64,000 nt of DNA from an uncultured Alphaproteobacteria bacterium (GTDB lineage Bacteria > Pseudomonadota > Alphaproteobacteria > Dongiales > Dongiaceae): assembly GCA_963851215.1 (NCBI GenBank), contig CAWKOG010000017.1, positions 345,465 to 409,464 on the forward strand, in the 5' to 3' direction. The stretch's first letter is position 1. The number at the start of each line of letters is the position of its first letter. The notes under the pieces were generated by a model, which had not been told where the DNA came from, did not search any database, and saw nothing but the letters and a program-made list of their open reading frames with translations. Shown piece by piece: positions 7,161 to 63,036 of this stretch. Position numbers and translations under genes: made by a program.

Positions 7161-7271
7161 GACTCCTCCGCGGCGGCCGGGACCTGGATCAAGAGGGCGG
7201 AGAGTGTTGCCCACAACCGCGCGGAAGCACAAGAGCCTTAGCCGGGCCGCTGCCCGCAACACAGACGCCGA

Positions 7272-8306
7272 TTAGGCGGCGTTGTGAATCACGTCGATAT
7301 CGCCGCCGCGATTTCGGCCGCGTGCGATTACAAATTTCAGACCCGCCCCGGAAGGCCATTTCTGCTGCATTTCCTGCAACAGCGCGGTGGCCTTTGCCTC
7401 CGACTCCACCAGGCCGAATCCAGTCGGACCCCAGGAGCTCTGCCCCACGCCCTGAACCCCTTGGGCGCGAAGCCAATCCAGAGTCTGCGTCACCGCGGCG
7501 CTGAGAAACCGCGCGCCCTGTACCGGTGCAAAGTGATCGCCGATGGCCGCCTGCAATTCAGCAATGGCGCCGCCGAAACGATTTAGATCCTCCTCGGCGA
7601 GCGCCGGCAGCGCTACCATCAGGACCAGACGGCAAAGCTGTGCCGCGCGATCCGCCGGCATCGGCGGCAATTTCTGGAATGCTTCGCTTTCGGCAGTGCC
7701 ATGCAAGCCGCGCCGCGCCTGGTCGAAGATCAAGAGGATGCGCCAGGATTCCGGAAACGGCAGCCGGCTGATGACCGGCGGCGGCTGATCCACCGCGCCG
7801 CGGCCGCCATCGAGCACCACGCCGCCTTGTTCGAAAGTGGCGATGCCGATGCTGGAGCGTGCGCCGCGATCCAGCAGCTGTGCAATTTCGCGGGCATCGC
7901 TCTCCAGGCCGAAGAATCGCGAAACCGACGTGCCGACCGCCAGGCAGAGCTGCGTGCCCGAACCAAGTCCAACATGGTCCGGTATCGCGGACTCGACGCG
8001 AAGCGCCAAGTCGGCGCCAAGCCGATAGTGGCGGATCAGCCGCTCGGCATAGGTTCTTGCCCGCTCGGCATCGGCGCCGGATATCGTGAGACCCGTGCCG
8101 GGCGTCACCGTCACGCGCGTGACCGGCGCATCCAGGGCGATCCCCAGGCTGCCGAAACGGCGACCCAAATCGCCGTTAAGATCGACAAAACCCGCATGCA
8201 ACCGGCCGGGAACGGTCACGGTTACGCGATCGATCGTGCCCGATCGCGCCGCATCCGAAGTTCCGCCGAGGTTCGCGTTGCTGGCCTTGTTGTCAGCGAG
8301 TATCAT
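7272..8306 (-). CDS. mptG: beta-ribofuranosylaminobenzene 5'-phosphate synthase (GHMP-kinase fold)
   Basis: …VTVPGRLHAGFVDLNGDLGRRFGSLGIALD… with GHMP-like glycine-rich motifs. ATG at 8306 has an AAGGGA RBS. The ORF-track start at 8342 is a TTG. Confidence 0.8.
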   Translation of the reverse strand: MILADNKASNANLGGTSDAARSGTIDRVTVTVPGRLHAGFVDLNGDLGRRFGSLGIALDAPVTRVTVTPGTGLTISGADAERARTYAERLIRHYRLGADLALRVESAIPDHVGLGSGTQLCLAVGTSVSRFFGLESDAREIAQLLDRGARSSIGIATFEQGGVVLDGGRGAVDQPPPVISRLPFPESWRILLIFDQARRGLHGTAESEAFQKLPPMPADRAAQLCRLVLMVALPALAEEDLNRFGGAIAELQAAIGDHFAPVQGARFLSAAVTQTLDWLRAQGVQGVGQSSWGPTGFGLVESEAKATALLQEMQQKWPSGAGLKFVIARGRNRGGDIDVIHNAA

Positions 8307-8376
8307 GATCCCTTCACTGCTGACTTGCCTGAGCGATGTCAAGCTTTGCGTCTGTCGCCCATGGAGACGTCCGTCG

Positions 8377-8754
8377 ATGGCCGAGAAAGAACGCGTTTAC
8401 AGCGAGGATGAGATCGTTGATCGCCTGAAGCGGGACCTGCCGCATTGGCATTACGAGGGCGGCTGGATCCGGCGAAAATACAAGACGCATAGCTGGAAAA
8501 GCACGCTCATGGTCATCAATACCGTGGGCCATCTGGCGGAATCGGCCTGGCATCATCCTGACATCACGGCCTCCTATGCCTGGGTCGAAGTGCGGCTGAT
8601 GAACCATGCGGCAAAGGGCGTGACCGACAAGGATTTCGCACTGGCCAAAAAGATCGAAGACGTCGTTCAATGGCAGCCGGGTAAGGAGGGCAGCGGGCTC
8701 GAGGGCACGCCGCAGACCGACCAGCGCTTCGCCTACATCAAGTACGACGCTTAG
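8377..8754 (+). CDS. pterin-4a-carbinolamine dehydratase (PCD/DCoH family)
   Basis: 125 aa from ATG 8377: MAEKERVYSEDEIVDRLKRDLPHWHYEGGWIRRKYKTHSWKSTLMVINTVGHLAESAWHHPDI…, the PCD signature. The ORF-track N-terminal extension is antisense to mptG. Confidence 0.75.
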   Translation: MAEKERVYSEDEIVDRLKRDLPHWHYEGGWIRRKYKTHSWKSTLMVINTVGHLAESAWHHPDITASYAWVEVRLMNHAAKGVTDKDFALAKKIEDVVQWQPGKEGSGLEGTPQTDQRFAYIKYDA

Positions 8755-14260: not shown

Positions 14261-14851
14261 CTATTCGGCGGCGCGCTGATCCGTGACTGACTTGCCGAGG
14301 AAATTGCGCAAGAGATCGTAGCCATGCTCGGTCAGCACGGCTTCCGGATGGAATTGCAGTCCGACGATCGGATGGCGGCGATGGGCGAGCGCCATGATCT
14401 CGCCTTCCTGGCTTTCGGCCGTGATTACAAGATCTTCGGGCAGATCTTCTTTGGCGACTACCAGGGAATGGTACCGCGTCGCCCGCAGCGGATTTGGCAG
14501 GCTGGCGAAAATGCCGGCGCCATTGTGCCGGATCATCGACGTCTTGCCATGCATCGGCCGCCGGGCGCGGACGATCCTGCCGCCGAAAGCCTGGCCGATG
14601 CTTTGATGGCCGAGGCAGACGCCCAGGATCGGAATGGACGGACCGAAGCGCCGCACCGTCGCCACGGAAATTCCGGCTTCATTGGGTGTGCAGGGACCGG
14701 GCGAGATCACGATGTGGGACGGTTTCAGCGCTGCGATTTCGTCCAGGCTGAAGCCGTCATTGCGTACGACCTGCGTGGACCAGCCGAGTTCGCGAAGATA
14801 GCGCGCCAGGTTGTGGACGAAGGAGTCGTAATTGTCGATCACCAGGATCAT
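14261..14851 (-). CDS. pabA: aminodeoxychorismate/anthranilate synthase glutamine amidotransferase component
   Basis: MILVIDNYDSFVHNLARYL… is the canonical TrpG/PabA N-terminus, with the catalytic Cys in GVCLGHQ. GGGAGGCGG RBS. Its neighbour is pabB-like in an H4MPT cluster (pABA is an H4MPT precursor). Confidence 0.85.
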   Translation of the reverse strand: MILVIDNYDSFVHNLARYLRELGWSTQVVRNDGFSLDEIAALKPSHIVISPGPCTPNEAGISVATVRRFGPSIPILGVCLGHQSIGQAFGGRIVRARRPMHGKTSMIRHNGAGIFASLPNPLRATRYHSLVVAKEDLPEDLVITAESQEGEIMALAHRRHPIVGLQFHPEAVLTEHGYDLLRNFLGKSVTDQRAAE

Positions 14852-16319
14852 GACCGCCTCCCGGGCCGGTCAGCGCCGCAATCAAGGCCCGCGCCTTGGC
14901 GACCGTCTCGTCATATTCGTCCGCCGGGCGAGAATCCGCGACAATGCCGCCGCCCGCCTGGAACGTCACCATGCCGTCCTTGATGCCGTAGGTGCGGATG
15001 GTGATGCTGGTATCCATCGAGCCGTCAAAGCCGATATAGCCGATGCTGCCGCAATAAGGGCCGCGGCGGGTCGGTTCGAGTTCCGCAATAATCTCCATCG
15101 CCCGGATCTTCGGGGCGCCGGTGATCGATCCCCCGGGGAAGCAGGCCGCCAGCAGATCGACCGCCGTCTTGCCCGGCTGCAATTCGCCGGTGACCGTCGA
15201 CACCAGATGAAACACCGTGGCGAAGGTTTCGAGCTCGCACAGCCGCGGCACGTCGACCGATCCGTCGCGGCAGACACGGGAGAGATCGTTGCGCAGGAGG
15301 TCGACGATCATCACATTCTCGGCGCGGTCCTTCTCGCTGGCCAGAAGCTCGGCGGCCAGCACCTCATCCGCCTGGGGCGTCGATCCGCGCGGCCGGGTTC
15401 CCTTGATCGGGCAGGTTTCGACCTGACCATGCTGCAGTCTCAGGAAGCGTTCGGGCGACGCTGAAACGATCTCGACATCGCCAGACTTGATCAGGGCCGC
15501 AAATGGCGCAGGATTTATCTTTCGCAACCTGCGATAGAGATCGAAACCAGTGAGTCCCTTTGGCAGTCTTGCTTGCAAGCACTGTGAAAGGTTGGCTTGA
15601 AATATGTCGCCGGCGAGGATGTAGCTTATGACCCGCTCCACGGCGGTTTCATAACCGGGCTGCGTGAAGTTGGATTGCAATTCGACCCGTCCGCTTACCG
15701 GCGCCGGCTGCGGCAGCGTTGCCGCCGACTCGATCCGGCGAAGGATGTGGTTGAGTCTCTCAATTGCAAGTTGTTCTCGATTGGCCGCGTCGGCATTGGG
15801 AAATCCGCTCGAAAAAATCCAAGCGCGTTGCGCCTGATGATCGACGGCGATGACGACATCGTGGAATCCGATCACCAAATCCGGAAACTGCATCTCGTCA
15901 TAGCGCGCCATCGGCACGCGCTCCAGATGCTGCGCAAGCTCATAGCCGAAATAGCCGACCGCTCCGCCTTGAAACGGCGGCAGATCTGGCGCCGGCGAAA
16001 AGCTGAATCGGCTGAGCTGTTCATCCAGCAGTTGAAACGGATTGCCCTGAAGTACGCGCTCGCCCAGGGCAATATTGCCATTCTTGCTGCTCAGAATCTG
16101 GAATGGCTCGATAGCGATATAGGAGTAGCGGCCGCGCTCGCCGTCGGTTACCGCGCTCTCCAGCAACACGGCATGGCGATCCCTGGCGAAGGGCGCAAAG
16201 AGTTCCAGCGGATCGCGATAGGCGATCTCCCGGACCAGCGGAGAAACAGCCTGGCCGGCAGCCGCGATATCGGGCACCCGCGGATGCGGCGGTATTTTCG
16301 GCAAGGTCTGTTGCATCAT
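14757..16319 (-). CDS. pabB: aminodeoxychorismate synthase component I (chorismate-binding enzyme)
   Basis: …PGGSITGAPKIRAMEIIAELEPTRRGPYCGSIGYIGFDGSMDTSITIRT…GGGIVADSRPADEYDETVAKARAL. Start ambiguous: TTG 16349 or ATG 16319. The reading frame extends 37 codons past the conserved C-terminus into pabA. Confidence 0.8.
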   Translation of the reverse strand: MMQQTLPKIPPHPRVPDIAAAGQAVSPLVREIAYRDPLELFAPFARDRHAVLLESAVTDGERGRYSYIAIEPFQILSSKNGNIALGERVLQGNPFQLLDEQLSRFSFSPAPDLPPFQGGAVGYFGYELAQHLERVPMARYDEMQFPDLVIGFHDVVIAVDHQAQRAWIFSSGFPNADAANREQLAIERLNHILRRIESAATLPQPAPVSGRVELQSNFTQPGYETAVERVISYILAGDIFQANLSQCLQARLPKGLTGFDLYRRLRKINPAPFAALIKSGDVEIVSASPERFLRLQHGQVETCPIKGTRPRGSTPQADEVLAAELLASEKDRAENVMIVDLLRNDLSRVCRDGSVDVPRLCELETFATVFHLVSTVTGELQPGKTAVDLLAACFPGGSITGAPKIRAMEIIAELEPTRRGPYCGSIGYIGFDGSMDTSITIRTYGIKDGMVTFQAGGGIVADSRPADEYDETVAKARALIAALTGPGGGHDPGDRQLRLLRPQPGALSSRTRLVHAGRTQ

Positions 16320-16363
16320 GGCGCCGCATTGTTCCCAGGCGCGGCGCAATGTGCAACATTTGA

Positions 16364-17521
16364 ATGGAGCCGCCCATCGGCGCTAACCTATTCATGCATA
16401 TGGCAAAATCAGACCTGCCCGCGACCGCTCCGGAGACTGCGCGCTGCTATCTGCGCCCGCTGGGGCTGTTCCGCCGCGGCGAGGAGGATAGCGCGGGCGA
16501 GTTTCCCCGGCTGCTTGGAGGTGCGCAGCGCATCGGCGCCTGGGAGATAACAATCCGCAACGGCGCGACAATCCAGCGAGCGGTCGCGACGGCGCCGGCC
16601 CTCAATGACTGGCGCGAACGGCAGCCGGCCGCCGTGAAGGCCAGGTTGGCGGTGCTAATCGATCGTTTGACCGCTTCGCGCTGGCACGCCATCGACCGGA
16701 CGGATGCTGGGCCCTTGCTCATGGGCATCGTCAATGTGACGCCCGACAGTTTCTCCGACGGCGGCCGGCATGAAGATCCCGCGGCTGCCCTGGCCCACGC
16801 CCGCGAACTCGTCGACGCCGGGGCGCGTATCCTGGATATCGGCGGGGAATCGACCCGGCCCGGTGCGGCGCCGGTATCTCCGCCTGATGAAATCCGGCGG
16901 GTGGTGCCGGTGCTTCAAGGGCTGCAGGATCTGCGTCAGGGTTCGCCGCGGATCATGCTCTCGATCGATACCCGGCATGCCGCCGTGATGAGGGCTGCGC
17001 TGCAGATCGGCGTGGATATCATCAACGACGTCACCGCCCTGACCGGCGACCTGGAGAGCTTCGCAGTCGCGGCCAGGAGCAGCGCCGATATCGCGCTCAT
17101 GCATATGCAAGGCGAGCCGCCGACCATGAACCAGGCGCCGGTTTATGCCGACGTCCTGTTGGATGTCTTCGACTATCTGGAGTCGCGCATCGCGGCCTGC
17201 GTAGCGGCGGGAATCCCTCGCGACAAGCTGATCGTGGACCCCGGCATCGGCTTCGGCAAAAAGAGCGCCGAAAATCTGGCGATCCTGCGCAATCTCGCCC
17301 TCTTCCACGGCCTCGGCTGCCGGACGCTCCTGGGTGCGTCGCGAAAGGGTTTCGGGGCGAAAACTCAGGCGCTGGCGCCCCGGGATCGGCTGCCGACATC
17401 CCTGGCGGCGGCTGTGTCGGCGGCAGCGCAGGGCTTTCATATGCTGCGCGTGCACGACGTGGCGGAGACAAAGCAGGCGCTGGAAATCTGGCGGCGCATC
17501 GCCGAAAACTCAACGGATTGA
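16364..17521 (+). CDS. dihydropteroate synthase-like pterin-binding protein with ~115-aa N-terminal extension (probable H4MPT-pathway DHPS homologue)
   Basis: C-terminal 270 aa carry DHPS motifs (GIVNVTPDSFSDGG, DIGGESTRPG, DPGIGFGK). The N-terminal extension is not DHPS-like. Confidence 0.8.
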   Translation: MEPPIGANLFMHMAKSDLPATAPETARCYLRPLGLFRRGEEDSAGEFPRLLGGAQRIGAWEITIRNGATIQRAVATAPALNDWRERQPAAVKARLAVLIDRLTASRWHAIDRTDAGPLLMGIVNVTPDSFSDGGRHEDPAAALAHARELVDAGARILDIGGESTRPGAAPVSPPDEIRRVVPVLQGLQDLRQGSPRIMLSIDTRHAAVMRAALQIGVDIINDVTALTGDLESFAVAARSSADIALMHMQGEPPTMNQAPVYADVLLDVFDYLESRIAACVAAGIPRDKLIVDPGIGFGKKSAENLAILRNLALFHGLGCRTLLGASRKGFGAKTQALAPRDRLPTSLAAAVSAAAQGFHMLRVHDVAETKQALEIWRRIAENSTD

Positions 17522-23166: not shown

Positions 23167-23751
23167 ATGACCATTGCGAACTTCGAAGCGCCGGCCGAGG
23201 ACGAACCCCGGGACGCCGACTGGTATCGAGGGGCCATCGATGCGGCACGCAGCTCCACCGCGAGCACACAAATCGGCGTACAGCCCGACCCAAGAGTTGG
23301 CGATATCGCAACAGCACGCGCCGCATCTTTGGATGCGGCGTTTCTTTCGCGCTTCATCGTTCTCCAGGCCATCGGTGCCTCATTCGTCACGGCATTGTGG
23401 ATCGCCGGCGTCGCGACCCGTCCTTTCGAGGGCGCGACCGCGGCACTCTGCTGGATCATCGTCGCGGTCGGCAGCGTCGGCGTTCTCTGCACCCTCCTCC
23501 AGCGCTGGCGTGACGTGCAGTGGATCGCCACGCATGTAGTGCGCATCGGACTGCTGGGCACCGTCGTCGGCCTGATCATCGCCTTCTCCGCGGCGCGCGA
23601 CAGCGGCGGCGCCGATGTGAATGGGGTGAAAGCCATGATCTCGGCCGTCGTGGACGGGATGTATGTCTCGCTCTACGCCACGCTTCTGGGGATCGGCATC
23701 AATCTCTGGCTCAAGATCAATCTGCGTCTGCTCGGCAACAGCGATGGATGA
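23167..23751 (+). CDS. MotA/TolQ/ExbB-family proton-channel protein (short, 194 aa, 4 TM)
   Basis: C-terminal GLLGTVVGLIIAF…ISAVVDGMYVSLYATLLGIGINLW matches the MotA/TolQ/ExbB channel signature. Confidence 0.65.
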   Translation: MTIANFEAPAEDEPRDADWYRGAIDAARSSTASTQIGVQPDPRVGDIATARAASLDAAFLSRFIVLQAIGASFVTALWIAGVATRPFEGATAALCWIIVAVGSVGVLCTLLQRWRDVQWIATHVVRIGLLGTVVGLIIAFSAARDSGGADVNGVKAMISAVVDGMYVSLYATLLGIGINLWLKINLRLLGNSDG

Positions 23752-24331
23752 GGAGACGCTCACCGTCTGGCTGGACACGGCGCTGCTGATGCTCGGCGGC
23801 TTCGTGCTGATGACGGTGCTGATGATGACCGTTGTCAATCCGCCGGCCAAGTCGGCGGAACAAGAGGGCGATCGAGCGCCCGGCAACGTGGTCATTGAAG
23901 CTCAATGGCAGGATCGGCTCGACGCCGATGTGGATTTGTGGGTGGCGGCGCCCGGCGATACGCCAGTGGGCTACTCCAACAAGAACGGCCGCGTATTCAA
24001 CCTGCTGCGCGACGACCTCGGCATGGCGCAGGATATGACCGATGTGAACTACGAGATCGCCTATAGCCGCGGCATGCCGGCCGCCGAGTATGTGGTCAAT
24101 GTGCATCTCTACCGGGTTATCGGCTCCACCGGTCCGATCGAAGTGAAGCTGATCGCGAGCCGGCGGACCGACGAGGCGGGCCAGACGCAGCAGCTCGCGT
24201 CCACCACCGTCCGGTTGCTGCATCTTAACGACCAGGTGACCGCCTTCAGGTTCGATCTCGATAGCGACGGCGACCTGGTTCCCGGCAGCATGAATACGCT
24301 GTTCAAGGAATTGCGCGTGGCCTCGCAATGA
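23744..24331 (+). CDS. ExbD/TolR-like membrane-anchored periplasmic protein (atypically long periplasmic domain)
   Basis: ATG 23744 overlaps the previous gene by 8 nt. N-terminal TM (TVWLDTALLMLGGFVLMTVLMMTV), then a ~150-aa soluble domain. Confidence 0.5.
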   Translation: MDEETLTVWLDTALLMLGGFVLMTVLMMTVVNPPAKSAEQEGDRAPGNVVIEAQWQDRLDADVDLWVAAPGDTPVGYSNKNGRVFNLLRDDLGMAQDMTDVNYEIAYSRGMPAAEYVVNVHLYRVIGSTGPIEVKLIASRRTDEAGQTQQLASTTVRLLHLNDQVTAFRFDLDSDGDLVPGSMNTLFKELRVASQ

Positions 24332-24816
24332 TCGCCACCGCCATCATTTTCGCATTGCTGCTGGGCGGATTCGTGTTCCGCGTCCTGCCACAAGGTGTCA
24401 TGTGGCAACGTGGCGTGTCGGCGGCCCTGTTCTTGCTGTTGGTTGGGCTCGTCTATGGCGGCGCGGTCGAGCTGCTGGGCCAGCCCAAACCGATGCGGCT
24501 TGAGTGGCGCGGCGGGGCCGAGGAAGCCGATGTTCTTGGCGCCTCGATGGCGGAGGGCGAAGCGATCTACGTCCTGCTGCAGTATCCCGACGGCATGCCG
24601 CCGCGATACTATCAGATTCCCTGGTCGCAACCGGCCGCGGAAGCGCTGCAGCAGGCACTGCGGGACGGCCAGGAACAGGGCACCGGCGTCAAGATGACAA
24701 TGGCCGACGGACCGGGCGGTCAGCCCGGCAACGACACGCGCGAGCCGATGTTCTACGCCCCGCCCCAGGCGGCCCTGCCGGACAAGAACTACAGCGCGAA
24801 TCTTTCGTCGAACTAG
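24328..24816 (+). CDS. small membrane protein with Pro-rich C-terminal tail
   Basis: 4-nt overlap with the previous gene. Two N-terminal TM helices. Confidence 0.5.
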   Translation: MIATAIIFALLLGGFVFRVLPQGVMWQRGVSAALFLLLVGLVYGGAVELLGQPKPMRLEWRGGAEEADVLGASMAEGEAIYVLLQYPDGMPPRYYQIPWSQPAAEALQQALRDGQEQGTGVKMTMADGPGGQPGNDTREPMFYAPPQAALPDKNYSANLSSN

Positions 24817-25320
24817 AGACCAGCCAAAGTTGAAAGTGCCGCATTGAATGTCCTCTGTTTCCGTCGTACGGAAACGAGGCGGCAGTGTTCATGTTCGGTC
24901 ACCGGCGCCGGTCTAACAGAGACCGCGCCGACGAATGTCGGCCAGGCAAGCCGACCAGGAGCTATAGTTGCCGAACTATCTGCAGACCTGTTAATATTCC
25001 TTAATCACTGACCAAATTTTGCCACGCAGAACCGACGAATATTGTGCCCAAATAAGTAATTATTATGCGCCTGCTGCCGGCGCACGATAACTCGTTGGTA
25101 CTGTTGATAAATTTTACTTTGAATGAGACAGACTCGGCGCAGGCGGCAACTGCCGCATGTGACAATACTCACAGTAGATTTTGAATACTCGGCGTTCATT
25201 CCGCCTTTAATCAGCAGTGATCTGCGGGCCGCAGCCCGGTGGGCCAGACTCTGCATCTAAGTCCGGCCCTCAGAATAGATCCGCTGAAGTGCGCGAACAC
25301 TCGACGAACGAGAGCGCATC

Positions 25321-26439
25321 ATGACACTGAGCCTGACAATCACTGGTCAATCGGACTCCAAGCTCAAACTGGCTTGGCGTGACGATGAGCAGTCTTTCAG
25401 CCCGGCGCCCTATTGCGTCGGCCAGAACATTGTCCTGGATGCCAGCAAGCAAGTCCGCGACGTGCTGACCAGGATAAGCACGCACTATCGCACGTCCGAC
25501 GCGCCGAGCTATGCCGCGTTTCTGCCAGAGCTGTCGCAACGCGGTATCGAGCTCCACGAGTCGCTCTTTCTGCCCATTGAATTGGGTCAGAGCGACGCGG
25601 ATGAGGTGAAGGATTACATAGCAGACTTATCGGCCCGGGAAGCGTTGACCATCTACTCGGATGCAAGCGCGCACGTGCCCTGGGGCTTCGTGTTTCCGGG
25701 GCCGGAGGCGATCAGGAGCGAAGATGCCGTCGGCTCAATTGTCGACTTCAAGGACTTCTGGTTGTCCCGCTTCTGCATTGCCACGAGGTTCAGCAAGACA
25801 TCGCACCTGAAGGATGAAGTCCGGAGCCGGACAAATTTTCGGGTCCTCTATGTGCTTCACAAGGACGCCTTTCAGAAAGCACGGAGCCAATTGGCGCCGC
25901 CAGACCAGCTTTGCCTGGACCGGCTGATCGCAGAGGATGCGGCGAACGCCGTGGATTGGAACTCGGCCCGCGACAAGTGGCGCGCGATCGCGGAAAACGA
26001 CAGCATCATCTACATCTTCGGCCACTCGAACGGGCAGGAGATCGCTCTCTCGGACGGTGATGAACCTCATCACCGCCTGAGCGCCGGCGCATTTCGCAGC
26101 TCGTTCAAGAAGAAGGGAACCAGGTCCGCCACGATCTGCTTCACCAACGGATGCTGGACAGCGGCAGGGCACAAGGACCAGAGCTTCCTCACGGCGACGG
26201 CGCTGCCGGGATTTCATGGATTCATCGGCAGCGAGGCCGAGGTCTCCAACGAATTCGCGACGCGGTACGGCCTGGAATTCATGCGCGACATCTGCGACCG
26301 CGGTTGTTCGATCCAGGAGACATTCGAGCACCTGCGGCAAGAGCTCTTTCCCTTGAGCCTCCTCTACTCCTGCTTCGCGCACGGAAAATTCCGGATCGAG
26401 CCACGCGCGGCACCGGCGAGTCAAAGCAATGCGGCGTAG
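25321..26439 (+). CDS. CHAT-domain (caspase-like cysteine protease) protein
   Basis: 372 aa. His motif IIYIFGHSNGQEIAL and Cys motif ATICFTNGCWTAAG, followed by GFIGSEAEVSNEFATRYGLEFMRDICDRG. This is the CHAT His/Cys dyad layout. The gene follows a 470-bp AT-rich spacer and has lower GC than its surroundings. Confidence 0.75.
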   Translation: MTLSLTITGQSDSKLKLAWRDDEQSFSPAPYCVGQNIVLDASKQVRDVLTRISTHYRTSDAPSYAAFLPELSQRGIELHESLFLPIELGQSDADEVKDYIADLSAREALTIYSDASAHVPWGFVFPGPEAIRSEDAVGSIVDFKDFWLSRFCIATRFSKTSHLKDEVRSRTNFRVLYVLHKDAFQKARSQLAPPDQLCLDRLIAEDAANAVDWNSARDKWRAIAENDSIIYIFGHSNGQEIALSDGDEPHHRLSAGAFRSSFKKKGTRSATICFTNGCWTAAGHKDQSFLTATALPGFHGFIGSEAEVSNEFATRYGLEFMRDICDRGCSIQETFEHLRQELFPLSLLYSCFAHGKFRIEPRAAPASQSNAA

Positions 26440-27832
26440 CGCGGCCCAGAAAAGGTCTCCCGATATCGGGACACCGCCCGCGACCGGCGCATGGCCTGCG
26501 GAACCCTATCTCGGCATGAATTTCTACACAGCGGCCGAAGCACCCCTGTTTGGAGAGCGCGATCAGGAGATAGAGCAATGCGCGGCGCTGGTTGGTGAGT
26601 TCTCGACTCGATTACTCGTCCTGCAAGGGAAAAGCGGTACGGGGAAATCCTCATTCCTGCGGGCCGGCCTGATCCCAAAGCTGGAGCAGCAGGGCTCTCC
26701 TTTCTACTTCCTGCGAGCGGAGAAAGGAAACGCCGAGCCCACTTTCGTTCGGTGCACGGACGATCCCGTGAGCCGAATCCACGCGCTTCTGGTGTCCGCG
26801 CTCGAGAACGATCCACAGCTCGGACGGCTTCCCATCGGCTTCCGGCAAGCAGTCGGAGAATTGCTCGCATCCGCGGCGTCAGACGATCGAGTTGATACAG
26901 CGGCCGCCATCCTCAAGGTACTCGCCGTGCTTTCAGAAGGTCTGCCGCAAACGCTGGTGCTGATCATCGATCAAAGCGAGGAAATACTGACCCTGCAGAC
27001 ATCGCGCGATCCGAACAACCGGCGCAAGGCGTTCTTCTATCTGCTCGAGGAACTTTGCCTGCGCAGTCTTGACGTCAGGGTCATTGTTGCGCTTCGAACC
27101 GAGTTCTGCGGCCGTTTCTATGACGCCTTTGGCATCAATCCCAGCCTCAGGGTCACATCGGACGTGCGCGCCGGTCTCGAGCAATTCATGCTCGGCGCAT
27201 TGCCGCGGGAAGGAATTGTCGCGGCGATCCTGCGGCCAACGCTGGCGACACCGATCGAAGGCTATGGCGTCCCGCGGGAACAATACCGATTCAAGTACGG
27301 CGAAGGCGTGGCCGAACACATCGCGGAGGATCTGCTCAGCCATTGCGGCGACTCCAGCACATTGCCGGTCCTGCAAATCGCCTGCAAGGCGCTCCACAAT
27401 CAAGTGGTCATCGGGAAGAAATGCCCGAAGATCACGATCGAACACTACAAAGCCCTTGGGGGCGTCAAAGGGCGAGTCGACGCATATATCGACGACGTCT
27501 TACGGGGTGCGCTGCAGGAAACCGGCGCAACTTCAGTGAGTTCCCGCCGACCTCGTTCGCTGGCGCCGGGTATTGGCAACATTGGCCGCGCGGCAAGAGG
27601 GGAATGCCGTAACCACCCTGATTCGCGCGGAGCACGACATCGTCAACGAGGCGGACCGGCAAGAGCTCCGCGGCGACATTCCAAGGATCTTGAAAACACT
27701 TGCCAAGCACAAGTGGCGGCTTTTGAGATCCGTCATAGGCGGTACAAACGGGGCAGCCCGTCAGTACAGCCTCGGTCACGATGCGCTTGCTGTTGCGTTA
27801 CTCAAATGGGACGAGGCGCAGCAGGGCCTTGA
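26429..27832 (+). CDS. STAND-type P-loop NTPase, N-terminal segment (the last ~95 codons are out-of-frame junk)
   Basis: PYLGMNFYTAAEAPLFGERDQEIEQCAALVGEFSTRLLVLQGKSGTGKSSFLRAGLIP (Walker A) and LVLIIDQSEE (Walker B), typical of STAND NTPases that pair with CHAT proteases. After …ALQETGATSVSS the frame turns Arg-rich nonsense, while frame 0 becomes protein-like from 27540. Confidence 0.65.
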   Translation: MRRSAAQKRSPDIGTPPATGAWPAEPYLGMNFYTAAEAPLFGERDQEIEQCAALVGEFSTRLLVLQGKSGTGKSSFLRAGLIPKLEQQGSPFYFLRAEKGNAEPTFVRCTDDPVSRIHALLVSALENDPQLGRLPIGFRQAVGELLASAASDDRVDTAAAILKVLAVLSEGLPQTLVLIIDQSEEILTLQTSRDPNNRRKAFFYLLEELCLRSLDVRVIVALRTEFCGRFYDAFGINPSLRVTSDVRAGLEQFMLGALPREGIVAAILRPTLATPIEGYGVPREQYRFKYGEGVAEHIAEDLLSHCGDSSTLPVLQIACKALHNQVVIGKKCPKITIEHYKALGGVKGRVDAYIDDVLRGALQETGATSVSSRRPRSLAPGIGNIGRAARGECRNHPDSRGARHRQRGGPARAPRRHSKDLENTCQAQVAAFEIRHRRYKRGSPSVQPRSRCACCCVTQMGRGAAGP

Positions 27833-28496
27833 AAGCGCAGAGAGGGAACGCCTCGGCGCGCGCCGGAAGCTGCAAACCTATTCTCTCGCGTTCCTCTGCT
27901 TGTTGCTGTTTATCGTTGGCTCCCTGCTTTGGAAAGAAGGCACGCAGACGGTCGACCGGAGTGAAAGGCTGATCGAGTTCTCGAATGTCGAACAGGGCGG
28001 CAATTTCAGACTGAGGATACAGCTGCTGCTGAGCGCGCTGGCTCTTTCAGATGGGCTTTGGAGCCCATTCATAGATGGCGAGAGAGCCCGCAGCGAACTG
28101 ATCGCCGCCCTTGCGGTTTCGCCCATCCTTGCCGGCCAGGGAGTAGCGGTCGGGCTGAATGACGAGGGAACCAGGATTGCGGTACTTCGAGACGAGTCGG
28201 CGTTCGTTGTCGATCTTGAACGTGACAACAAGGAAGAAGTATCGACCTTCAAATTTGTGCCTGGCGAGGTTCTCGAAGCATTCAGGCAGCACCTGCCTGC
28301 AATCGGCTTTGTCTCCGGCATGGCGGCGCCGGTTGTATACGATGCGGGATATCTGTACTGGAACTCCGGTACGGCGGGATCAACGCAAATCCAGGAACTT
28401 TCACAGGACATCAGAGAGTTCTCAGAATCTGGGATTTTCGCCTGTGGGGTTTGCATCCGGCTTTGTGCAAGTGCTGATCTCCAATCGCCCCAATGA
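27573..28496 (+). CDS. middle segment of the same STAND gene (helical region with one TM-like stretch); probably not an independent gene
   Basis: Frame 0 is protein-like from 27540 (…WRRVLATLAARQEGNAVTTLIRAEHDIVNEADRQELRGD…) with no ATG. The only possible starts are weak TTGs. It ends in short junk after 28430, where frame 1 becomes protein-like. Confidence 0.4.
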   Translation: MATLAARQEGNAVTTLIRAEHDIVNEADRQELRGDIPRILKTLAKHKWRLLRSVIGGTNGAARQYSLGHDALAVALLKWDEAQQGLESAERERLGARRKLQTYSLAFLCLLLFIVGSLLWKEGTQTVDRSERLIEFSNVEQGGNFRLRIQLLLSALALSDGLWSPFIDGERARSELIAALAVSPILAGQGVAVGLNDEGTRIAVLRDESAFVVDLERDNKEEVSTFKFVPGEVLEAFRQHLPAIGFVSGMAAPVVYDAGYLYWNSGTAGSTQIQELSQDIREFSESGIFACGVCIRLCASADLQSPQ

Positions 28497-29382
28497 GACT
28501 GAGAATTGGATCAAGGTCCTCCGCGTAACGCCTCAAATGATTCAGAATGGCTCTCTCCCGAGTTCGACCAGGATTAGCTGGAGGGGGCCACTTTCCTGGC
28601 CGATCATTTCGACGCAATCAGACAAGTTTGCCTACGTGGGCAATTCTCGCGAGCAGGAAATATACAACAGCATCATGCTTTCCTCGCTGTCCGATCCAAC
28701 GCTTGTCTCGCTTGTCTACGGCTTGCCGAGTATGCGAAGCAGCGGTTTCGACCCATCCATTTCGCTGACTTTCGCCAACTCGGGGAATTCGCTGATCGTT
28801 CGCGACACTCGAGAAACACTGAGGATTTTGCCATCGGCGCAGGACCGGCGGGCCCGGCTCCTTGCACGAGCCGCTCCGGTTGTTACGATTCCGGAGGGGC
28901 TGCGGGACGATCCCGTTCAGCCGCGCCGGCTAACGATGCGGCCACTCCTCGCCGCGGCAAAAATCGACAGCGAATGGCGATTTGCATGGTTGACGGAAAA
29001 CGGAATTGCCGTGATCAGAAGCGAGGCGAGCGACCCAGAGAATGCGCAGCCGGTCGTTGACGCAAGACTTCTCACGGGAGCCGCCGACCTGGCGAACGCC
29101 TTCAAGCTGAGTTTCAGCAAGGACGGGCGCTTTCTTGTAGTGCTTCTGCGCTCGCGCATGCAGCCGCAGAGCCGGCAGCGCGGACCGATGCGGTACCTGG
29201 TCTGGGATCTCAATTACAGCAAGGCCGATCTTCGGAATGCGACCAATCAGGAGTTGCGCGACAAAGCCTGCGCCACAGCCGCGCTCGACAAGGCGGAGGC
29301 GCTTGTCACGCCCGTCGAGAAATTCGTCTGGTTTCACGACTCGGCGCTGCCCTGCGGCGAACCTCCCACCGCAGCGCCCTGA
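28159..29382 (+). CDS. C-terminal beta-propeller (WD40-like repeat) segment of the same STAND gene
   Basis: From about 28430, frame 1 shows repeated blade-like units (FAYVGNSREQEIYN, ISLTFANSGNSLIVRDTRETLRI, WRFAWLTENGIAVIRSEAS, AFKLSFSKDGRFLVVLLRS, MRYLVWDL). Upstream of 28430 this frame is junk. Confidence 0.45.
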   Translation: MTREPGLRYFETSRRSLSILNVTTRKKYRPSNLCLARFSKHSGSTCLQSALSPAWRRRLYTMRDICTGTPVRRDQRKSRNFHRTSESSQNLGFSPVGFASGFVQVLISNRPNETENWIKVLRVTPQMIQNGSLPSSTRISWRGPLSWPIISTQSDKFAYVGNSREQEIYNSIMLSSLSDPTLVSLVYGLPSMRSSGFDPSISLTFANSGNSLIVRDTRETLRILPSAQDRRARLLARAAPVVTIPEGLRDDPVQPRRLTMRPLLAAAKIDSEWRFAWLTENGIAVIRSEASDPENAQPVVDARLLTGAADLANAFKLSFSKDGRFLVVLLRSRMQPQSRQRGPMRYLVWDLNYSKADLRNATNQELRDKACATAALDKAEALVTPVEKFVWFHDSALPCGEPPTAAP

Positions 29383-29386
29383 AGCG

Positions 29387-30466
29387 ATGACCGACTTCCT
29401 CGCCAGAATGGGGGGATTTGTAGAGAAGCTGCGTTCCAGCCCGATGCCGCTGCCGACGGTCTCGGAAATCGCCCATGATCGCTGCTTGCCATCAGGCGTC
29501 GCCGGCCGTGAGATCGTCAAGGACAATGGCTACTTTACGGTGTGGCTCAACGAGCTGTTCCTTGCGGAGGGGCGCAACTGGTGGGCAACTTACGACCCCG
29601 TCGCCATTGTCGTCACGGAATTCGGCTATGGCACCGGAAGAGTCTCGGTGCCGGTCATTGTCGGACCCAATCTCATTTCGGCAAAGAATCCCGGCGTCCC
29701 GCACGGCATTGTGCTCCGCGACACCTGCGTCGCCGGGCCATATCCCTTCCGCGGCGGCAATGTCGCGATTACCGTCATCCTGTACAAGGTGAAGCATCAG
29801 GACTATGCCCGCGGATTGCTGCGTTTCGTCGAGAGTCTTTCTTCGGCGATTGGAACGCCTGCCGACATTGGCATGCTGGCGAAGGTCGGGGGCACTGTCC
29901 TCGATGGCCTGGAGTCTCTGTTGAATCTGGGCGACACGGTGCCGGTGGCCGGCCACAGGATTGAGATCGACACGTCAACATTGAGCGGCTTCGTTTCCTC
30001 CTATACGGCGCTGATCGCCGAGCGCGATGTCGACATGTCGCAGCTTCGGGTCGAGGAACGACGGCTCCTGCTGCAACAGTCCGATGGGACGAACACGAGA
30101 TTCGAGAAGGCCGACTATGTCCTGTACAGCGTTCTCGGCCGGGAACGCCGGGGCGACGAGAGCACGTTGCCGTTCTATCGCGCGTTCTTGCAGGCTCGAA
30201 ATGCCGCCATGGTGAACAATCCGGACAACTGGAAGCGCGCCAAAGCGATGCTCCTGTCGATTTACGAGCAGATGGTCCTAAGCCCGGATCTTACGTTGCG
30301 GGAGGCCGACGCATTGTTTGACTCCTACCGCGAAGATCTGTTGGCCATCCGGAAGAAATCGCAGGCCGTACATGCCATGCCCCTGGGACAGGAGCCGCCC
30401 CGGCCCGACGCCAGGGAAACCCGCGTGAACAACGCCACCTCGGTGCTGGACCTGGAGCCAACCTAA
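29387..30466 (+). CDS. hypothetical protein, 359 aa, third gene of the CHAT/STAND islet
   Basis: ATG 29387 lies 4 nt after the STAND stop. No recognisable motifs. Lower GC like the two preceding genes. Confidence 0.55.
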   Translation: MTDFLARMGGFVEKLRSSPMPLPTVSEIAHDRCLPSGVAGREIVKDNGYFTVWLNELFLAEGRNWWATYDPVAIVVTEFGYGTGRVSVPVIVGPNLISAKNPGVPHGIVLRDTCVAGPYPFRGGNVAITVILYKVKHQDYARGLLRFVESLSSAIGTPADIGMLAKVGGTVLDGLESLLNLGDTVPVAGHRIEIDTSTLSGFVSSYTALIAERDVDMSQLRVEERRLLLQQSDGTNTRFEKADYVLYSVLGRERRGDESTLPFYRAFLQARNAAMVNNPDNWKRAKAMLLSIYEQMVLSPDLTLREADALFDSYREDLLAIRKKSQAVHAMPLGQEPPRPDARETRVNNATSVLDLEPT

Positions 30467-30550
30467 GCTCCGATGGCAGACAGAACGCGGGGCGCGGGGA
30501 GCCCGCACCCGGCGCCGGACGATGTACGACCGGCGCCGGCCTGATCAGAC

Positions 30551-30820
30551 CTAGCAGAGCACGCCGGATGACGGATCGCCGCAAGGACCCTCGCCGGTGT
30601 CGACGACGCCCGACTCGGCGTCGTTCAGAACCTTGGCGACCTTATCGGCCGCTTTCCTGCCCTTGGTGTGAATCGTGCCCGTTTCATCGTCGGTGACAAT
30701 GTAGCCCGGCCCCATCGGATCCTCGCGCACCACCCATTCGCCGGCCAACACGACGGCAGGCGCGGTGAGCGCATAGACCAGCCCGAGGAAGCTTGCACTT
30801 CTCGAAATGAGATTCGCCAT
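30551..30820 (-). CDS. small secreted protein, paralogue 1 (C-terminus …VDTGEGPCGDPSSGVLC)
   Basis: ATG 30820 with GGAGA RBS. Signal peptide MANLISRSASFLGLVYALTAPAVVLAGE. 89 aa. Confidence 0.55.
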   Translation of the reverse strand: MANLISRSASFLGLVYALTAPAVVLAGEWVVREDPMGPGYIVTDDETGTIHTKGRKAADKVAKVLNDAESGVVDTGEGPCGDPSSGVLC

Positions 30821-30849
30821 GATCGATGTCTCCAATCGGTTTCTGGGTT

Positions 30850-31125
30850 TCAGCAAAGCACGCCGGAGCTGGGATCGCCGCAGGGACCTTCGCCGGTGTC
30901 GACGAATTCCTTGTCCTTATCCAGCGCCTTGTTGACCTTCTTGGCGGTGCGTGTGGCTTCTTTCTCCGTGAGGTCCAGTGGAATTCTGTTATCACCCTCG
31001 CGAATGCCGTAGTGCGTGCCGTCGTCGGTATAGGCGCTCCAGGTTGCGAACGCCGCGCCGGGGAACACCGCAAGCGCCGCCACCAGAATGAGCGCCGGCA
31101 TGCCTGCGAACTTCATGAGTTTCAT
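30850..31125 (-). CDS. small secreted protein, paralogue 2 (identical 17-aa C-terminus)
   Basis: ATG 31125 with GAAGGAGGAGAAG RBS. Signal peptide MKLMKFAGMPALILVAALAVFPGAAFA. 91 aa. The last 17 residues and their DNA are near-identical to paralogue 1. Confidence 0.6.
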   Translation of the reverse strand: MKLMKFAGMPALILVAALAVFPGAAFATWSAYTDDGTHYGIREGDNRIPLDLTEKEATRTAKKVNKALDKDKEFVDTGEGPCGDPSSGVLC

Positions 31126-31360
31126 CTTCTCCTCCTTCGCCGCGGACGGTCTCTGGTCTCGCGGCCTTGGTGCCAATGGCTGGAACATGGGCACGTCGCG
31201 CGACAGCGAATGTGATGCGCAGCACACCCGCGGGCGAATTAACGTTGCTGTTCCGATCTCAACTGAATCTTTCCCGGCGATTCACGCTAGCTTCACGGAT
31301 GCCGAAGGAATGGGGCGGGACTGAAACCCGCCCCTACATGCGGTTCGCGATTCATGTGTA

Positions 31361-31424: not shown

Positions 31425-32576
31425 TCACGCCGGCTCCGGCGCCTTCAGGCGCAGGAGCTTGCTGAGGAGGGCGTCGAGGCCCTGGGCTTCGCCGGCGTGG
31501 AGGTCGATGCGGCCGACCTTCTCCACCAGCTTCTCGAGGCTCTCGAGCTCCTTCAGCCGCAGGAGGAGCGGGTTGTCCTCCATCAGCTTGGCGGTGTTCA
31601 GGAGCGAGCGCGTCGCCGCGGTCTCCTCCTGGCGGCGGATCAGGTTGGCCTTCGCCGTCCGCTCCGCCTCCACCACTTTGTTCACGAGCTCGCGGATCTC
31701 GCCGGGCAGGATCACGTCCTTCACGCCGAGCTCCGTCACCTCGATGCCCGTCTCGCCCAGGCGCTCACGCACGAACGTACGCAGCTCCTGATCGAGCGCG
31801 CCCTTGGCGGAGAGCACCTCGTCCAACGTCCGCGCCGCCACCGCCTCGCGGATGGCGAACTGCACCAGGCGGTACAGCCAGCCGTCCACATCCGCGACCG
31901 CGCTCGCCGCGCGCTCGGGATCGACGATGCGGCGCAGCGCGGAGAGCGTCACGCGCAGGGCGATGCGGTCCTTGGTCAGCATCTCCTGCGCGGTGATCTC
32001 CACCGCCTGCGGCCGCAGATCCACCCGCTTGACCTCTACCTTGCGGTTGACGGTCCAGTAGGCGTGGCGGCCCGGCGCCAGGCGTTCCACCAGGCGGCCC
32101 TCGACATAGAGCAGGCCGGCCTCGTGGTTCTCCACCACCGTCTCCGCCAGGTAGACGCTCCGCGCGCGGTCGAGCAACGTCAGGTGCCGCGCGGCCACGC
32201 GGGGCTCGCGCGCGACATCGATGCGCTCGACCTCGACGGCCGTGGCCACCTTCCAGAACACGCGCACCTGCCACGGACCGGCCAGATGGACCGGCCGGCC
32301 GTCGAGGCTGACGATGGCGAGCTCATCGGCCCGCGTCTCCACCGCCTCGAACAGTTCGGCCGCCATCGCCGGCCGCTCCGCCTTCATCACGGCGTAGCGG
32401 TCTGCCGCGAACTCGGCGCGAACCACCTGGAAGATCTCGGCCTTCAGCGTGCTCAGCGGATCGAAGACCCAGTGACGGCCCGGGCCGAGCACGCGCTCGT
32501 ACCGGCCGTTCCGCGTCAGGAGGGCGCGCTCGCCATCCTTCACGGTAACGCGGAGACTCAGAATAAGCCTACTCAT
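31425..32576 (-). CDS. SPFH/band-7 (stomatin/flotillin-like) domain protein
   Basis: ATG 32576 with GGAGG RBS (the ORF-track 17-aa N-terminal extension is unlikely). Long coiled-coil C-terminal part typical of SPFH proteins. Confidence 0.8.
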   Translation of the reverse strand: MSRLILSLRVTVKDGERALLTRNGRYERVLGPGRHWVFDPLSTLKAEIFQVVRAEFAADRYAVMKAERPAMAAELFEAVETRADELAIVSLDGRPVHLAGPWQVRVFWKVATAVEVERIDVAREPRVAARHLTLLDRARSVYLAETVVENHEAGLLYVEGRLVERLAPGRHAYWTVNRKVEVKRVDLRPQAVEITAQEMLTKDRIALRVTLSALRRIVDPERAASAVADVDGWLYRLVQFAIREAVAARTLDEVLSAKGALDQELRTFVRERLGETGIEVTELGVKDVILPGEIRELVNKVVEAERTAKANLIRRQEETAATRSLLNTAKLMEDNPLLLRLKELESLEKLVEKVGRIDLHAGEAQGLDALLSKLLRLKAPEPA

Positions 32577-32907
32577 GGTAACCTCCACACTTCGGCCTTG
32601 CGGCCATGCCGCAAGACTCTGTTGCAACTCTGAGGATACGGGTTCCGGACGCGTCTTCGCGAAAGACCGGCGGGCCAGGGCTTGAGCCCGCGGGAATCAG
32701 CGGGCGCGCGCCGGCGCGCACCGCACCGAGGTGCTGTGAACGGCAGCCGAACCCGACGATCCGCGCGGGCGATATCCGCCCCGGCGCAGAGCCGGTCTCA
32801 AGTTGTCTGGTACGTTCGATGGGCCTCTCGGCCAGCCGACCGGACCGCGACTGAAGCGCGCGTCCGGTTCCCTAAAATGGGTTTCAGTTTTTCAGGCTGA
32901 ACCGGAG

Positions 32908-40038: not shown

Positions 40039-41063
40039 CAGGCGATCTCGCCATGGGCAAGATGACAGGCAACGTCGTGGCTCTGCTTCACGGCCCGCAG
40101 GACCGGCTCCCGCTCCAGACAGAGCGGCGCGCAATGGCGGCAGCGTGGATTGAAGCGGCAGCCTGGCGGCAGGTTGACGGGGCTGGGCGGTTCGCCTTCC
40201 AGCAGGATGCGGTCGCGGCGCGCACCGGAACTCGGGATTGGGATCGCCGAGATCAGGGCCTTCGTATAGGGGTGCTGCGGATCGTCGAAGAGGGTCTTGG
40301 TGTCGGCAAGCTCGACGATCCTGCCGAGATACATGACGGCGACACGGTCGCACAGAAAGCGCACGATGCTGAGATCGTGGCTGATGAACAGGATGGTGAG
40401 GCCCAGTTCCACCCGCAGCTTCTGCAACAGCTTCACGACCTGGGCCTGGATGGAGACATCCAGCGCCGATATCGGCTCGTCGCAGAGAATGATGTCCGGC
40501 TCCAGGACCAGCGCACGGGCCAGCACCACCCGCTGTTGCTGTCCGCCGCTCAGCTCATGGGGGAACTTGGCGAAATGGCTCGTGCCCATGCCGACCGCGT
40601 CGAGAATACGCCGCGCCTTGTCCGCCCTCTCCCGCCCTGCGCCCAGTTCATGGATGGTCAGCGGCTCGATCACCTGATCGAGCACTTTCATGCGGGGGTC
40701 GAGAGCGCTCAGCGGGTCCTGGAAGACATACTGGATCTTCCGGCGCATCTGCCGCCATGCCGCCGCGGAAAGTTTGGTGAGCTCCGTATTGTTGAGCCGC
40801 ACGCTGCCGGACTGCGGTGGATGAATGTTGAGAATGGCCTTGGCGACCGATGATTTGCCGCAGCCGCTCTCGCCGACAATGCCGAGAACTTCGCCCTTGT
40901 TGATCCAGAACGAGACATCATCCACCGCCTTCACCGTCGGCCGCTGGCCGAACAGCCCGCTTCGGCTCAGCCGGAAATGCCGGCTCAGGCCCTCGACCGC
41001 CAGCAGCGGATCGCCGCCGATGGGCGATGAAGGATTGCCGGACACAGGCAATGCGGCGGTCAC
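40038..41063 (-). CDS. peptide/nickel ABC transporter ATP-binding protein, DppF-like
   Basis: Walker A GESGCGKSS, LSGGQQQRV, C-terminal oligopeptide-ATPase domain. Confidence 0.9.
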   Translation of the reverse strand: MTAALPVSGNPSSPIGGDPLLAVEGLSRHFRLSRSGLFGQRPTVKAVDDVSFWINKGEVLGIVGESGCGKSSVAKAILNIHPPQSGSVRLNNTELTKLSAAAWRQMRRKIQYVFQDPLSALDPRMKVLDQVIEPLTIHELGAGRERADKARRILDAVGMGTSHFAKFPHELSGGQQQRVVLARALVLEPDIILCDEPISALDVSIQAQVVKLLQKLRVELGLTILFISHDLSIVRFLCDRVAVMYLGRIVELADTKTLFDDPQHPYTKALISAIPIPSSGARRDRILLEGEPPSPVNLPPGCRFNPRCRHCAPLCLEREPVLRAVKQSHDVACHLAHGEIA

Positions 41064-42041
41064 GCGGCCTCGCCGGCGGGATTGAAGCAGGCCAGGCGAT
41101 GGCCCGCCTCATGCTCGCTGAGAGGCGGCACATGACGGCTGCAATCGCCTAGCATGCGGCTGCAACGCGGCGAGAAGGCGCAGCCTGGCGGCAGCGCCAG
41201 CGGCGGCGGCACCATTCCTTCGATGGGATGCAGCGCCGAGATGGTCTGGTCGATACGTGGCCGCGAATTCAGCAGTCCTACGGTGTAGGGATGGCGCGGC
41301 CGCAGGAAGAGGTCCGACACGCTGCCCATTTCGACAATGCGGCCGCAATACATCACCGCGACCACATCGCAAGTCTCCGCGATGACGCCGAGATCGTGGC
41401 TGATGAGGATGACCGTCATGCCGCGGCGGTCCCGCAGATCGAGGAGCAGGCGCAGGATCTGCGCCTGGATGGTGACGTCGAGCGCCGTCGTCGGCTCGTC
41501 GGCGATCAGCAACTGCGGATCGCCGGCCAGCATCATGGCGATGAGGGCGCGCTGGTTCATGCCGCCGGAAAGCTGATGCGGGAACTCGCGCAGGCGCCGC
41601 TCCGGGTCCGGCATCCGGACCTCCCGCAGTAAGCGGATCGCTTCGGCGCGGATTTCAGGCTCGGACCGAGCCGACTGGCCGTCAGGGGAACGGTTCAACC
41701 GAATCGCCTCGCAGAGTTGCCAGCCGATGCTGCGGACGGGATTCAGCGCCGCCGCCGGATCCTGAAAGATCATGGCGATCTTCCGGCCGCGCGCCCTGGT
41801 GATGGCGGCCTCGTCCAGAGCGAGCAGGTCGACATCGTCAAGCCAGGCCTTCCCGCCGATAGTCGGCGGACTTGCCCAGCAACTGCATCAACGCAAGGCA
41901 GGTGACGCTCTTGCCGCTGCCGCTTTCGCCGACGATGCCGAGGATCTGTCCCCGGTCGACTTGAAAATCGACCCCCTGGACGATCGGAATGCGATCGCCA
42001 GGGGGTCCGAAAGAGACAGTCAGATTTGAAACGCGAAACAT
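41060..42041 (-). pseudogene. peptide/nickel ABC transporter ATP-binding protein, DppD-like, split by a frameshift near 41870-41885
   Basis: N-terminal 67-aa ORF (41838..42041, Walker A GESGSGKSV) and C-terminal ORF (41060..41773, Q-loop [13 protein letters not shown], Walker B) are in different frames. The second frame is already DppD-like upstream of 41773 (…PPTIGGKAWLDDVDLLALDEAAITRARGRKIAMIFQDP). Confidence 0.6.
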
Positions 42042-42117
42042 CGCGATTGTCCGGCCGCAAAGCTGTGGTCCGATAGCCGAGCGGCGATCGAACCGCCTCC
42101 GGGACTACTGCCGCACA

Positions 42118-51411: not shown

Positions 51412-51444
51412 GATCCCCGCGCAATCCTAAGATGCCCGGCCCCT

Positions 51445-62967: not shown

Positions 62968-63036
62968 CATTGCCTCCCAGCCCGCTCTCCGCCAGCATGG
63001 GCGCCACACCCATCGCGATAGACCGGAGGCCCCGCC

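Follow-up and report, generated by a model that had tools for sequence, protein, structure and literature searches.

The region at 26429-29382 of a 64,000-nucleotide stretch of DNA from an uncultured alphaproteobacterium of the Dongiaceae (assembly GCA_963851215.1, contig CAWKOG010000017.1, positions 345,465 to 409,464 of the forward strand; hereafter the window) carries three overlapping open reading frames (ORFs), each in a different frame, and raises the question of whether these are three genes or a single interrupted one. If there is one gene—a preliminary description had proposed a split STAND NTPase—it must further be asked whether the interruptions reflect decay, recoding, recent mutation, or errors in the assembled sequence. 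The gene, referred to below as the sensor gene, lies between two others, gene A and gene C.

Three reading frames make up one nSTAND1 gene

All three ORFs are on the plus strand: ORF 1 at 26429..27832 (467 aa, position mod 3 = 2), ORF 2 at 27573..28496 (307 aa, frame 0), and ORF 3 at 28159..29382 (407 aa, frame 1). Piece 1 of the sensor (26429..27538, +, frame 2, 370 codons) encodes the nSTAND1 P-loop NTPase, and ORF 1 then continues out of frame (27539..27832, +) through 98 arginine-rich codons without homology, a tail earlier put at about 95 codons. Three-frame translation shows frame 0 closed upstream by a TGA at 27537-39 and protein-like from 27540, as had been proposed. Piece 2 (27540..28412, +, frame 0, approximately 291 codons) contains the end of the nSTAND1 module with its winged-helix part, a long helix bearing a transmembrane (TM) segment, a helical linker, and the first propeller blades; its ORF also has an out-of-frame tail (28414..28496, +). 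Piece 3 (28414..29382, +, frame 1, approximately 322 codons plus the stop) reads as protein in the same translation from about 28414 up to its stop codon at 29380-82, and contains the remaining beta-propeller blades and C-terminal helices with two cysteines that are invariant in the family.

Each of nine homologues compared with the window by tblastn gave three high-scoring segment pairs, one per frame, with E-values of 1e-113 to 1e-169. The switch from frame 2 to frame 0 lies between 27529 and 27543, with the frame-2 pairs ending at 27517-27535, and the switch from frame 0 to frame 1 lies between 28358-28418 and 28399-28441. The codon position with the lowest GC content changes at the same two places. 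The Pfam nSTAND1 model (PF20703) matches ORF 1 alone with an E-value of 5.5e-36 (125 bits, profile positions 1-272 of 379), the match stopping at ORF 1 residue 363; the joined translation scores 136 bits against a cutoff of 27.1 and is matched over positions 1-366 of 379, that is, across the first break.

A search with the joined 982-aa translation gave 139 matches, about 60 of the top ones being single proteins of 940-1040 aa with 95-99% query coverage, so that three separate proteins are not the norm among homologues. Named sources of homologues include Azospirillum soli, Bradyrhizobium, Tardiphaga, Rhizobium and Paraburkholderia, and the best full-length homologue (P0001, 987 aa) is 41% identical. 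When the middle piece alone was searched with HMMER, 141 representatives were recovered, nearly all aligning from residues ~340-440 of proteins of 940-1060 aa; short matches are few and have scattered start positions, as expected from contig truncation.

The agreement of the frame switches with the homologues and with the profile match is far beyond chance and, judged on sequence, 26429-29382 is one nSTAND1 NTPase gene of 982-983 aa, interrupted twice, and not three genes. The preliminary description is thus borne out in its three-frame split by two +1 shifts and in its single protein of about 980 aa with NTPase, helical and beta-propeller parts, and the alignment to intact homologues that it had called for (here by tblastn) places both switches. 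Its statement that the later pieces have neither an ATG nor a ribosome-binding site (RBS) of their own holds only in part: an ATG is present in frame 1, at 28159, but some 250 nt before the homologous part begins. The missing RBS carries little weight, because Shine-Dalgarno sequences are weak at the true starts of the operon too.

Functional nSTAND1 members have a single continuous ORF, whereas here the gene is spread over three frames and is disrupted relative to its intact orthologues. The sequence as written can yield no more than 467 aa, an NTPase fragment ending in nonsense, and is formally a frameshifted pseudogene. The region should be annotated as one frameshifted nSTAND1 gene, and not as three hypothetical proteins.

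Placement of the two breaks

The closest relative of the window protein is P0002 (626 aa, 53% identical), which is free of frame breaks, begins at the equivalent of break 1 and served as the reference for placing both breaks. Break 1 lies at 27537..27545 (+), where a +1 shift corresponds to one base extra or two missing. The longest homopolymer there is CCC, and the conserved motif ADLVRWRRVL starts at 27546. Removal of any single base of 27537-27542 restores ...ETGATSV(V)PADLVRWRRVL, matching VAPAELIRWRRVL (VAPAELIRW) in P0002.

Break 2, also +1, lies at 28375..28434 (+). Each candidate deleted base was scored against P0002 by frameshift-aware alignment, in BLOSUM units. The scores are flat at 71-81 over 28375-28425 and highest at 28402-28413, the best placements being 28402 (within TTT) and 28412-13; because the local loop is poorly conserved, the exact base is not fixable. 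The T4 run at 28435-38, earlier suggested as the second site, is disfavoured, with a score of 61, or 16-20 BLOSUM units below the best placements.

Selective constraint on the interrupted gene

Constraint was measured as the ratio of nonsynonymous to synonymous substitution rates (dN/dS, Nei-Gojobori) against two soil-metagenome contigs that carry the island containing the sensor gene at about 93% nucleotide identity (dS ~0.19-0.28). One of these, L008, includes gene A and the first 354 nt of the sensor and ends at 26782, upstream of both breaks; the other, L089, starts at 28654, downstream of both breaks, and includes the last 242 sensor codons and gene C. The dN/dS values are 0.08 for gene A, 0.10 for the N-terminal part of the sensor (118 codons), 0.20 for its C-terminal part (242 codons), and 0.08 for gene C. 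The relaxed constraint expected of a pseudogene is therefore not seen in either part of the sensor and, since the frame-1 part has a dN/dS of 0.20, it must have been read in frame 1 for nearly all of the time since the lineages split. If the pseudogene is genuine, these values are compatible only with very recent inactivation.

The same picture is given by 89 conserved columns, each kept in at least 85% of 70 homologues. The window sensor deviates at 10 of them, all of the changes being conservative except G392N, and two (V386A and G392N) are visibly common to P0002. No internal stops or deletions are found inside the sensor pieces, and the Walker A (GKSGTGKSS) and Walker B (LVLIIDQSEE) motifs are intact, the family consensus being GRSGTGKSS and LVLxIDQAEE. 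The earlier characterization of the gene as decaying is not upheld by these observations. Because the rest of the gene looks selected, the breaks are young or not real, and we consider it highly probable that this is one nSTAND1 gene, in the middle of a cassette on an accessory island, with two +1 breaks that are either recent or artefactual.

Consensus error or recent mutation

The 64 kb window contains four frame breaks in three unrelated genes, all of them +1, and the two outside the sensor had been noted previously. A dppD-like gene for the first ABC ATPase of a dpp/opp-type operon (41060-42060, -) has a +1 shift near 41850, which separates the Walker A part (41770..42060, -) from the rest of ABC_tran and oligo_HPY (41060..41773, -), with no long homopolymer at the site; this break is real in the sequence. 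A gene for a small TM protein with an N-terminal TM helix and a beta-rich part (51440-51800, -) has a +1 break at or near an A5 run at 51639-51643. Four further regions considered as possible frameshifts proved to be separate or intact genes: TrpE/TrpG (14261-16349), a cupin region (62943-63888), a beta-eliminating lyase (50356-51411), and a pterin dehydratase gene with an A5 run (8347-8754). Base-level accuracy of the window should be flagged on account of the four breaks. By a rough estimate, two of four breaks would fall in one gene by chance about 15% of the time, too often for the clustering to decide the matter.

Inactivated accessory defence genes are a frequent finding, and consensus sequences of long-read metagenome-assembled genomes (MAGs) often contain indels; frame breaks of this kind are in themselves routine. 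That both sensor breaks are base-count errors of the consensus or assembly, the organism's own sensor being intact, has in our judgement about an even chance. Four breaks in the same direction in three unrelated genes point to something systematic; among the nearest relatives, which are MAGs, one (locus L009) has obvious indel problems; and three independent metagenome assemblies break inside the sensor gene, suggesting strain heterogeneity able to corrupt a consensus.

Genuine, very recent loss-of-function mutations at both sites are a serious possibility, at somewhat under even odds. In all coding sequence that the window shares with the independent contigs L008 and L089, the indel state is the same; neither break 1 nor the dppD site lies in a long homopolymer; and a second lesion is to be expected once an accessory, potentially self-toxic gene is already dead. 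We lean slightly toward consensus error over real recent inactivation; mixtures and other causes take up the small remainder.

The contigs of the three independent metagenomes end inside the sensor at the equivalents of 26782, 27524 and 28654. No close relative spanning 26783-28653 came from a scan of genome contigs with the joined protein or from a scan of metagenome contigs with an alignment of the window and P0002 sequences, and no exact matches to gene A or ORF 1 were found. The window and P0002 proteins are 83-90% identical over the first ~100 aa after break 1 and 25-60% identical thereafter, a fall from about 88% to about 45%. This pattern suggests mosaic, recombining sensor-domain alleles in natural populations, which would explain why assemblers branch in the sensor gene.

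Old decay, recoding and natural split

A different account makes the sensor an old pseudogene, long inactive and eroding progressively under neutrality. It would accommodate the two independent frame breaks in one gene, the position of the gene on a dispensable island, and the number of deviations at conserved columns, which at 10 of 89 exceeds the 0-7 seen in other close family members. But long neutrality along one lineage would give a dN/dS of about 0.5 or more, not 0.10 and 0.20, and would hardly leave pieces free of in-frame stops and deletions with intact Walker motifs; moreover, the deviations are conservative, with V386A and G392N present also in P0002, and the flanking cassette genes are intact with an omega of 0.08. 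Old decay is therefore very unlikely.

Programmed recoding, in which a +1 shift of the ribosome or RNA polymerase at both sites would produce the full-length sensor, is less probable again, and we regard it as a far-fetched explanation, in keeping with its earlier ranking as the less likely option. Both shifts are in the same direction, and two other family members in public assemblies have a +1 break in the propeller part, at 6300-6345 near two T5 runs in L090 and at 2620-2640 at a C8 run in L091. But a slippery P-site codon beside a stop or rare codon is lacking at both window sites (27527-27548 and 28375-28440), beyond which the zero frame continues for another 98 and ~27 codons, and neither site offers a long A/T run on which transcription could slip. 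The four sensor breaks are at different protein positions (~370, 660, 700 and 770), some 60 homologues are read without any shift, and Rfam finds only tRNAs in the window, with no element in the region. Neither a shift-prone site nor a conserved position, the marks of programmed +1 frameshifting, is thus present. The prfB-type event shares the +1 direction with the window sites and differs in having a CUU-U-type slip codon, an in-frame stop and an upstream SD-like (Shine-Dalgarno) stimulator, all lacking here, where the shift is also unconserved. All six of the breaks examined (four in the window, one each in L090 and L091) are +1.

A natural split into three polypeptides (NTPase; winged helix-turn-helix with TM; propeller) that assemble can be set aside as having a negligible probability, for although P0002 starts at the equivalent of break 1 and a few short library matches start near the beginning of piece 2, only 16 nt separate the start of the P0002 gene from a contig end, another contig from the same JGI (Joint Genome Institute) sample carries P0122 (77% identical to gene A) and 406 sensor codons running to the contig end, a 127-nt in-frame overlap of the two contigs would, by coordinate arithmetic only, give one 995-aa ORF, the short matches scatter as truncated contigs do, and pieces 2 and 3 have no plausible start of their own at the homology boundary and overlap out of frame without abutting.

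Architecture of the sensor protein

The joined translation of the interrupted nSTAND1 gene has the features of a STAND protein: PF20703 scores above its gathering threshold, both Walker motifs are present, and a C-terminal repeat domain follows the NTPase module. The order is a P-loop NTPase, a winged-helix and helical part, one TM helix, and a C-terminal WD40-like beta-propeller, although the propeller domain escapes the Pfam WD40 models. The AlphaFold2 model of P0002, for which 55 family members were used (predicted local distance difference test score, pLDDT, 85.6), runs from a winged-helix-like part through a 70-residue helix and a helical linker to a beta-rich domain and C-terminal helices. 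The two cysteines near the C-terminus are invariant among the 55 sequences.

The predicted single TM helix, TYSLAFLCLLLFIVGSLLW, is encoded at 27876..27932 (+), has a Kyte-Doolittle 19-mer mean of 2.12, and falls inside the 70-residue helix of the P0002 model. Of 22 homologues, 20 have an equivalent segment at residues ~470-525, preceded by 4-7 K/R residues and followed by 1-4. Enrichment of K/R residues N-terminal of the helix would place the propeller outside the cytoplasm, and the protein is predicted to be a single-pass membrane sensor with a cytoplasmic NTPase. The preliminary description had overlooked this TM helix between NTPase and propeller, as well as the three-gene cassette and the island.

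A conserved three-gene cassette

Gene A (25321..26439, +; 372 aa) is intact and encodes a stand-alone protease of the CHAT/separase fold (caspase superfamily). The start of the sensor gene overlaps it by 11 nt, and gene C (29387..30466, +; 359 aa; ATG position checked), likewise intact, starts 4 nt after the sensor stop. The same order recurs in Azospirillum soli (L003), Bradyrhizobium (L004) and Tardiphaga (L006/L007), with A proteins of 371-375 aa, nSTAND1 proteins of 951-1020 aa in a single ORF, C proteins of 353-356 aa, and overlapping or abutting genes; the A. soli proteins are 46% identical to gene A and 45% identical to gene C. The sensor is thus the second of three closely packed genes in a conserved cassette of defence type, in which gene C is a constant partner.

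The caspase/CHAT fold of gene A comes with a conserved His/Cys pair, the invariant His235 and Cys278, which we infer to be the candidate catalytic dyad. Gene A matches no Pfam family at E <= 0.1 (the CHAT model PF12770 included) and no NCBIfam or PADLOC family. Gene C has 69 homologues of ~350-360 aa, all without Pfam domains. With PADLOC-DB v2, gene A, sensor pieces 2 and 3, and gene C are all without a match, and ORF 1 gives only weak matches at the P-loop level, the best (7.5e-05) being to a type IV RecD model.

Known systems and a proposed mechanism

The nSTAND1 clade (PF20703) was named by Kaur, Iyer, Burroughs and Aravind (eLife 2021, PMC8195603). The window sensor resembles its members in having a P-loop NTPase, a helical/winged-helix part, a C-terminal repeat sensor and a caspase-superfamily peptidase as neighbour (PMC8195603). 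It differs in that its ORF is interrupted twice, in that a TM helix separates the NTPase from a propeller of divergent sequence, in that the peptidase is a separate gene and not an N-terminal fusion, and in that no effector-associated adaptor domain is evident at its short N-terminus. "Transmembrane STAND ATPases" are among the sensors linked to protease-effector modules (Evans et al., bioRxiv 2025, 10.1101/2025.11.14.688446).

Antiviral STAND (Avs) and other sensors coupled to such modules act with a protease, caspase-like or of the serine type, and with a small constant partner, a latent effector that cleavage releases. The cassette would follow the same logic, whereas gene C (359 aa) is, by sequence searches, not Pepco (117 aa), EACC1 (~115 aa), MBL or an alpha/beta-hydrolase. 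Gene A differs from the known CHAT proteases—Csx29/TPR-CHAT of the type III-E CRISPR Craspase, SAVED-CHAT, and separase—in its sequence (7-14% identity), in having no TPR or SAVED parts, and in being unmatched by the Pfam CHAT model; its activator would be a STAND NTPase, and not a CRISPR effector or a cyclic nucleotide.

On the model of STAND/NLR-like sensors that act with protease-effector modules (PMC8195603; PMC7159879; bioRxiv 10.1101/2025.11.14.688446), the propeller, held outside the cytoplasmic membrane by the TM helix, may detect an envelope or invader cue. The cytoplasmic nSTAND1 module would then oligomerise in an NTP-dependent manner, and the oligomer might license the stand-alone CHAT protease. 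The protease would in turn cleave a target, for which the gene C product, as a putative latent effector, is the candidate. That the cassette is an uncharacterised envelope-sensing immune or suicide system, and that the breaks in the window, L090 and L091 are real and represent a recurrent switching-off of a costly sensor, is a doubtful proposition, though not one of the least probable considered here.

Several points weigh against the reading of the locus as a single recently or artefactually broken sensor gene within such a cassette. The base state at the breaks comes from the assembly sequence, and the closest relative covering either break site is only 53% identical in protein sequence. The propeller fold and the TM topology were modelled on that same relative, P0002, and not on the broken gene of the window. 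Gene C has no match in Pfam, NCBIfam, PHROGs, PADLOC or a PDB-sequence profile search and does not resemble a characterised effector, no PADLOC-DB v2 system model matches the cassette, and the step from protease to partner, like sensing outside the cytoplasm, is proposed purely by analogy.

Of more use than the frame breaks is the recurrence in Alphaproteobacteria of a compact module of CHAT protease, TM STAND NTPase with a propeller predicted to lie outside, and partner protein. The cassette is a reasonable candidate for study, from an intact copy (for example, that of Azospirillum soli or Bradyrhizobium) rather than from that of the window.

The accessory island and its surroundings

The whole cassette lies in a 5.7 kb segment (24815..30550) of lower GC content (56-61%), which fills the spacer between the convergent genes 24328..24816 (+) and 30551..30856 (-) and has no integrase. 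A housekeeping gene nearby places the lineage with Dongiaceae-like alphaproteobacteria. The closest genome locus, L009 of a MAG (94.6-95% nucleotide identity), is collinear on both sides, with ~100 nt (14962-15061) replacing 24815-30550. The segment is missing from L011 and L012 too, where the gap spans 23180-30550. Since these three loci are without the segment and its GC content is lower, we take the cassette to be on an accessory island. A scan of the island for promoters and terminators gave results at chance level, and in a plasmid collection no close DNA match was found, only distant nSTAND1 proteins.

A 14-nt palindromic near-repeat, ACCGGCGCCGG(T/C)CT, is present near both ends of the island, at 24901-24914 and 30529-30542, and may be due to chance; it was rejected as a target-site duplication, being too short and missing from the empty site in L009. 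The ~93%-identical contig L008 has no counterpart of 23221-24263, the segment beside the island with a MotA/ExbB-like ORF and its neighbour. In its gene content, this locus is a hotspot of variation.

An SPFH/band-7 gene (31425-32627, -) is intact in the window and absent from L089. In L009 it has eight indels of 1-2 nt (15900-17010) that split it into several ORFs; either the consensus is heavily in error there, or the gene is a genuine old pseudogene in that MAG. Two tandem small ORFs of 101 and 125 aa (30551-31227, -) share a near-identical C-terminal motif, VDTGEGPCGDPSSGVLC; neither has a family match, and the two resemble paralogous small peptides of an exported or modified kind. Farther away, 5093-8342 (-) encodes the N-terminal domain of a methylene-H4MPT dehydrogenase, an ATP-grasp protein and a GHMP-kinase-like protein, all of a tetrahydromethanopterin-pathway type, which hints at C1 metabolism in this Dongiaceae-like organism.

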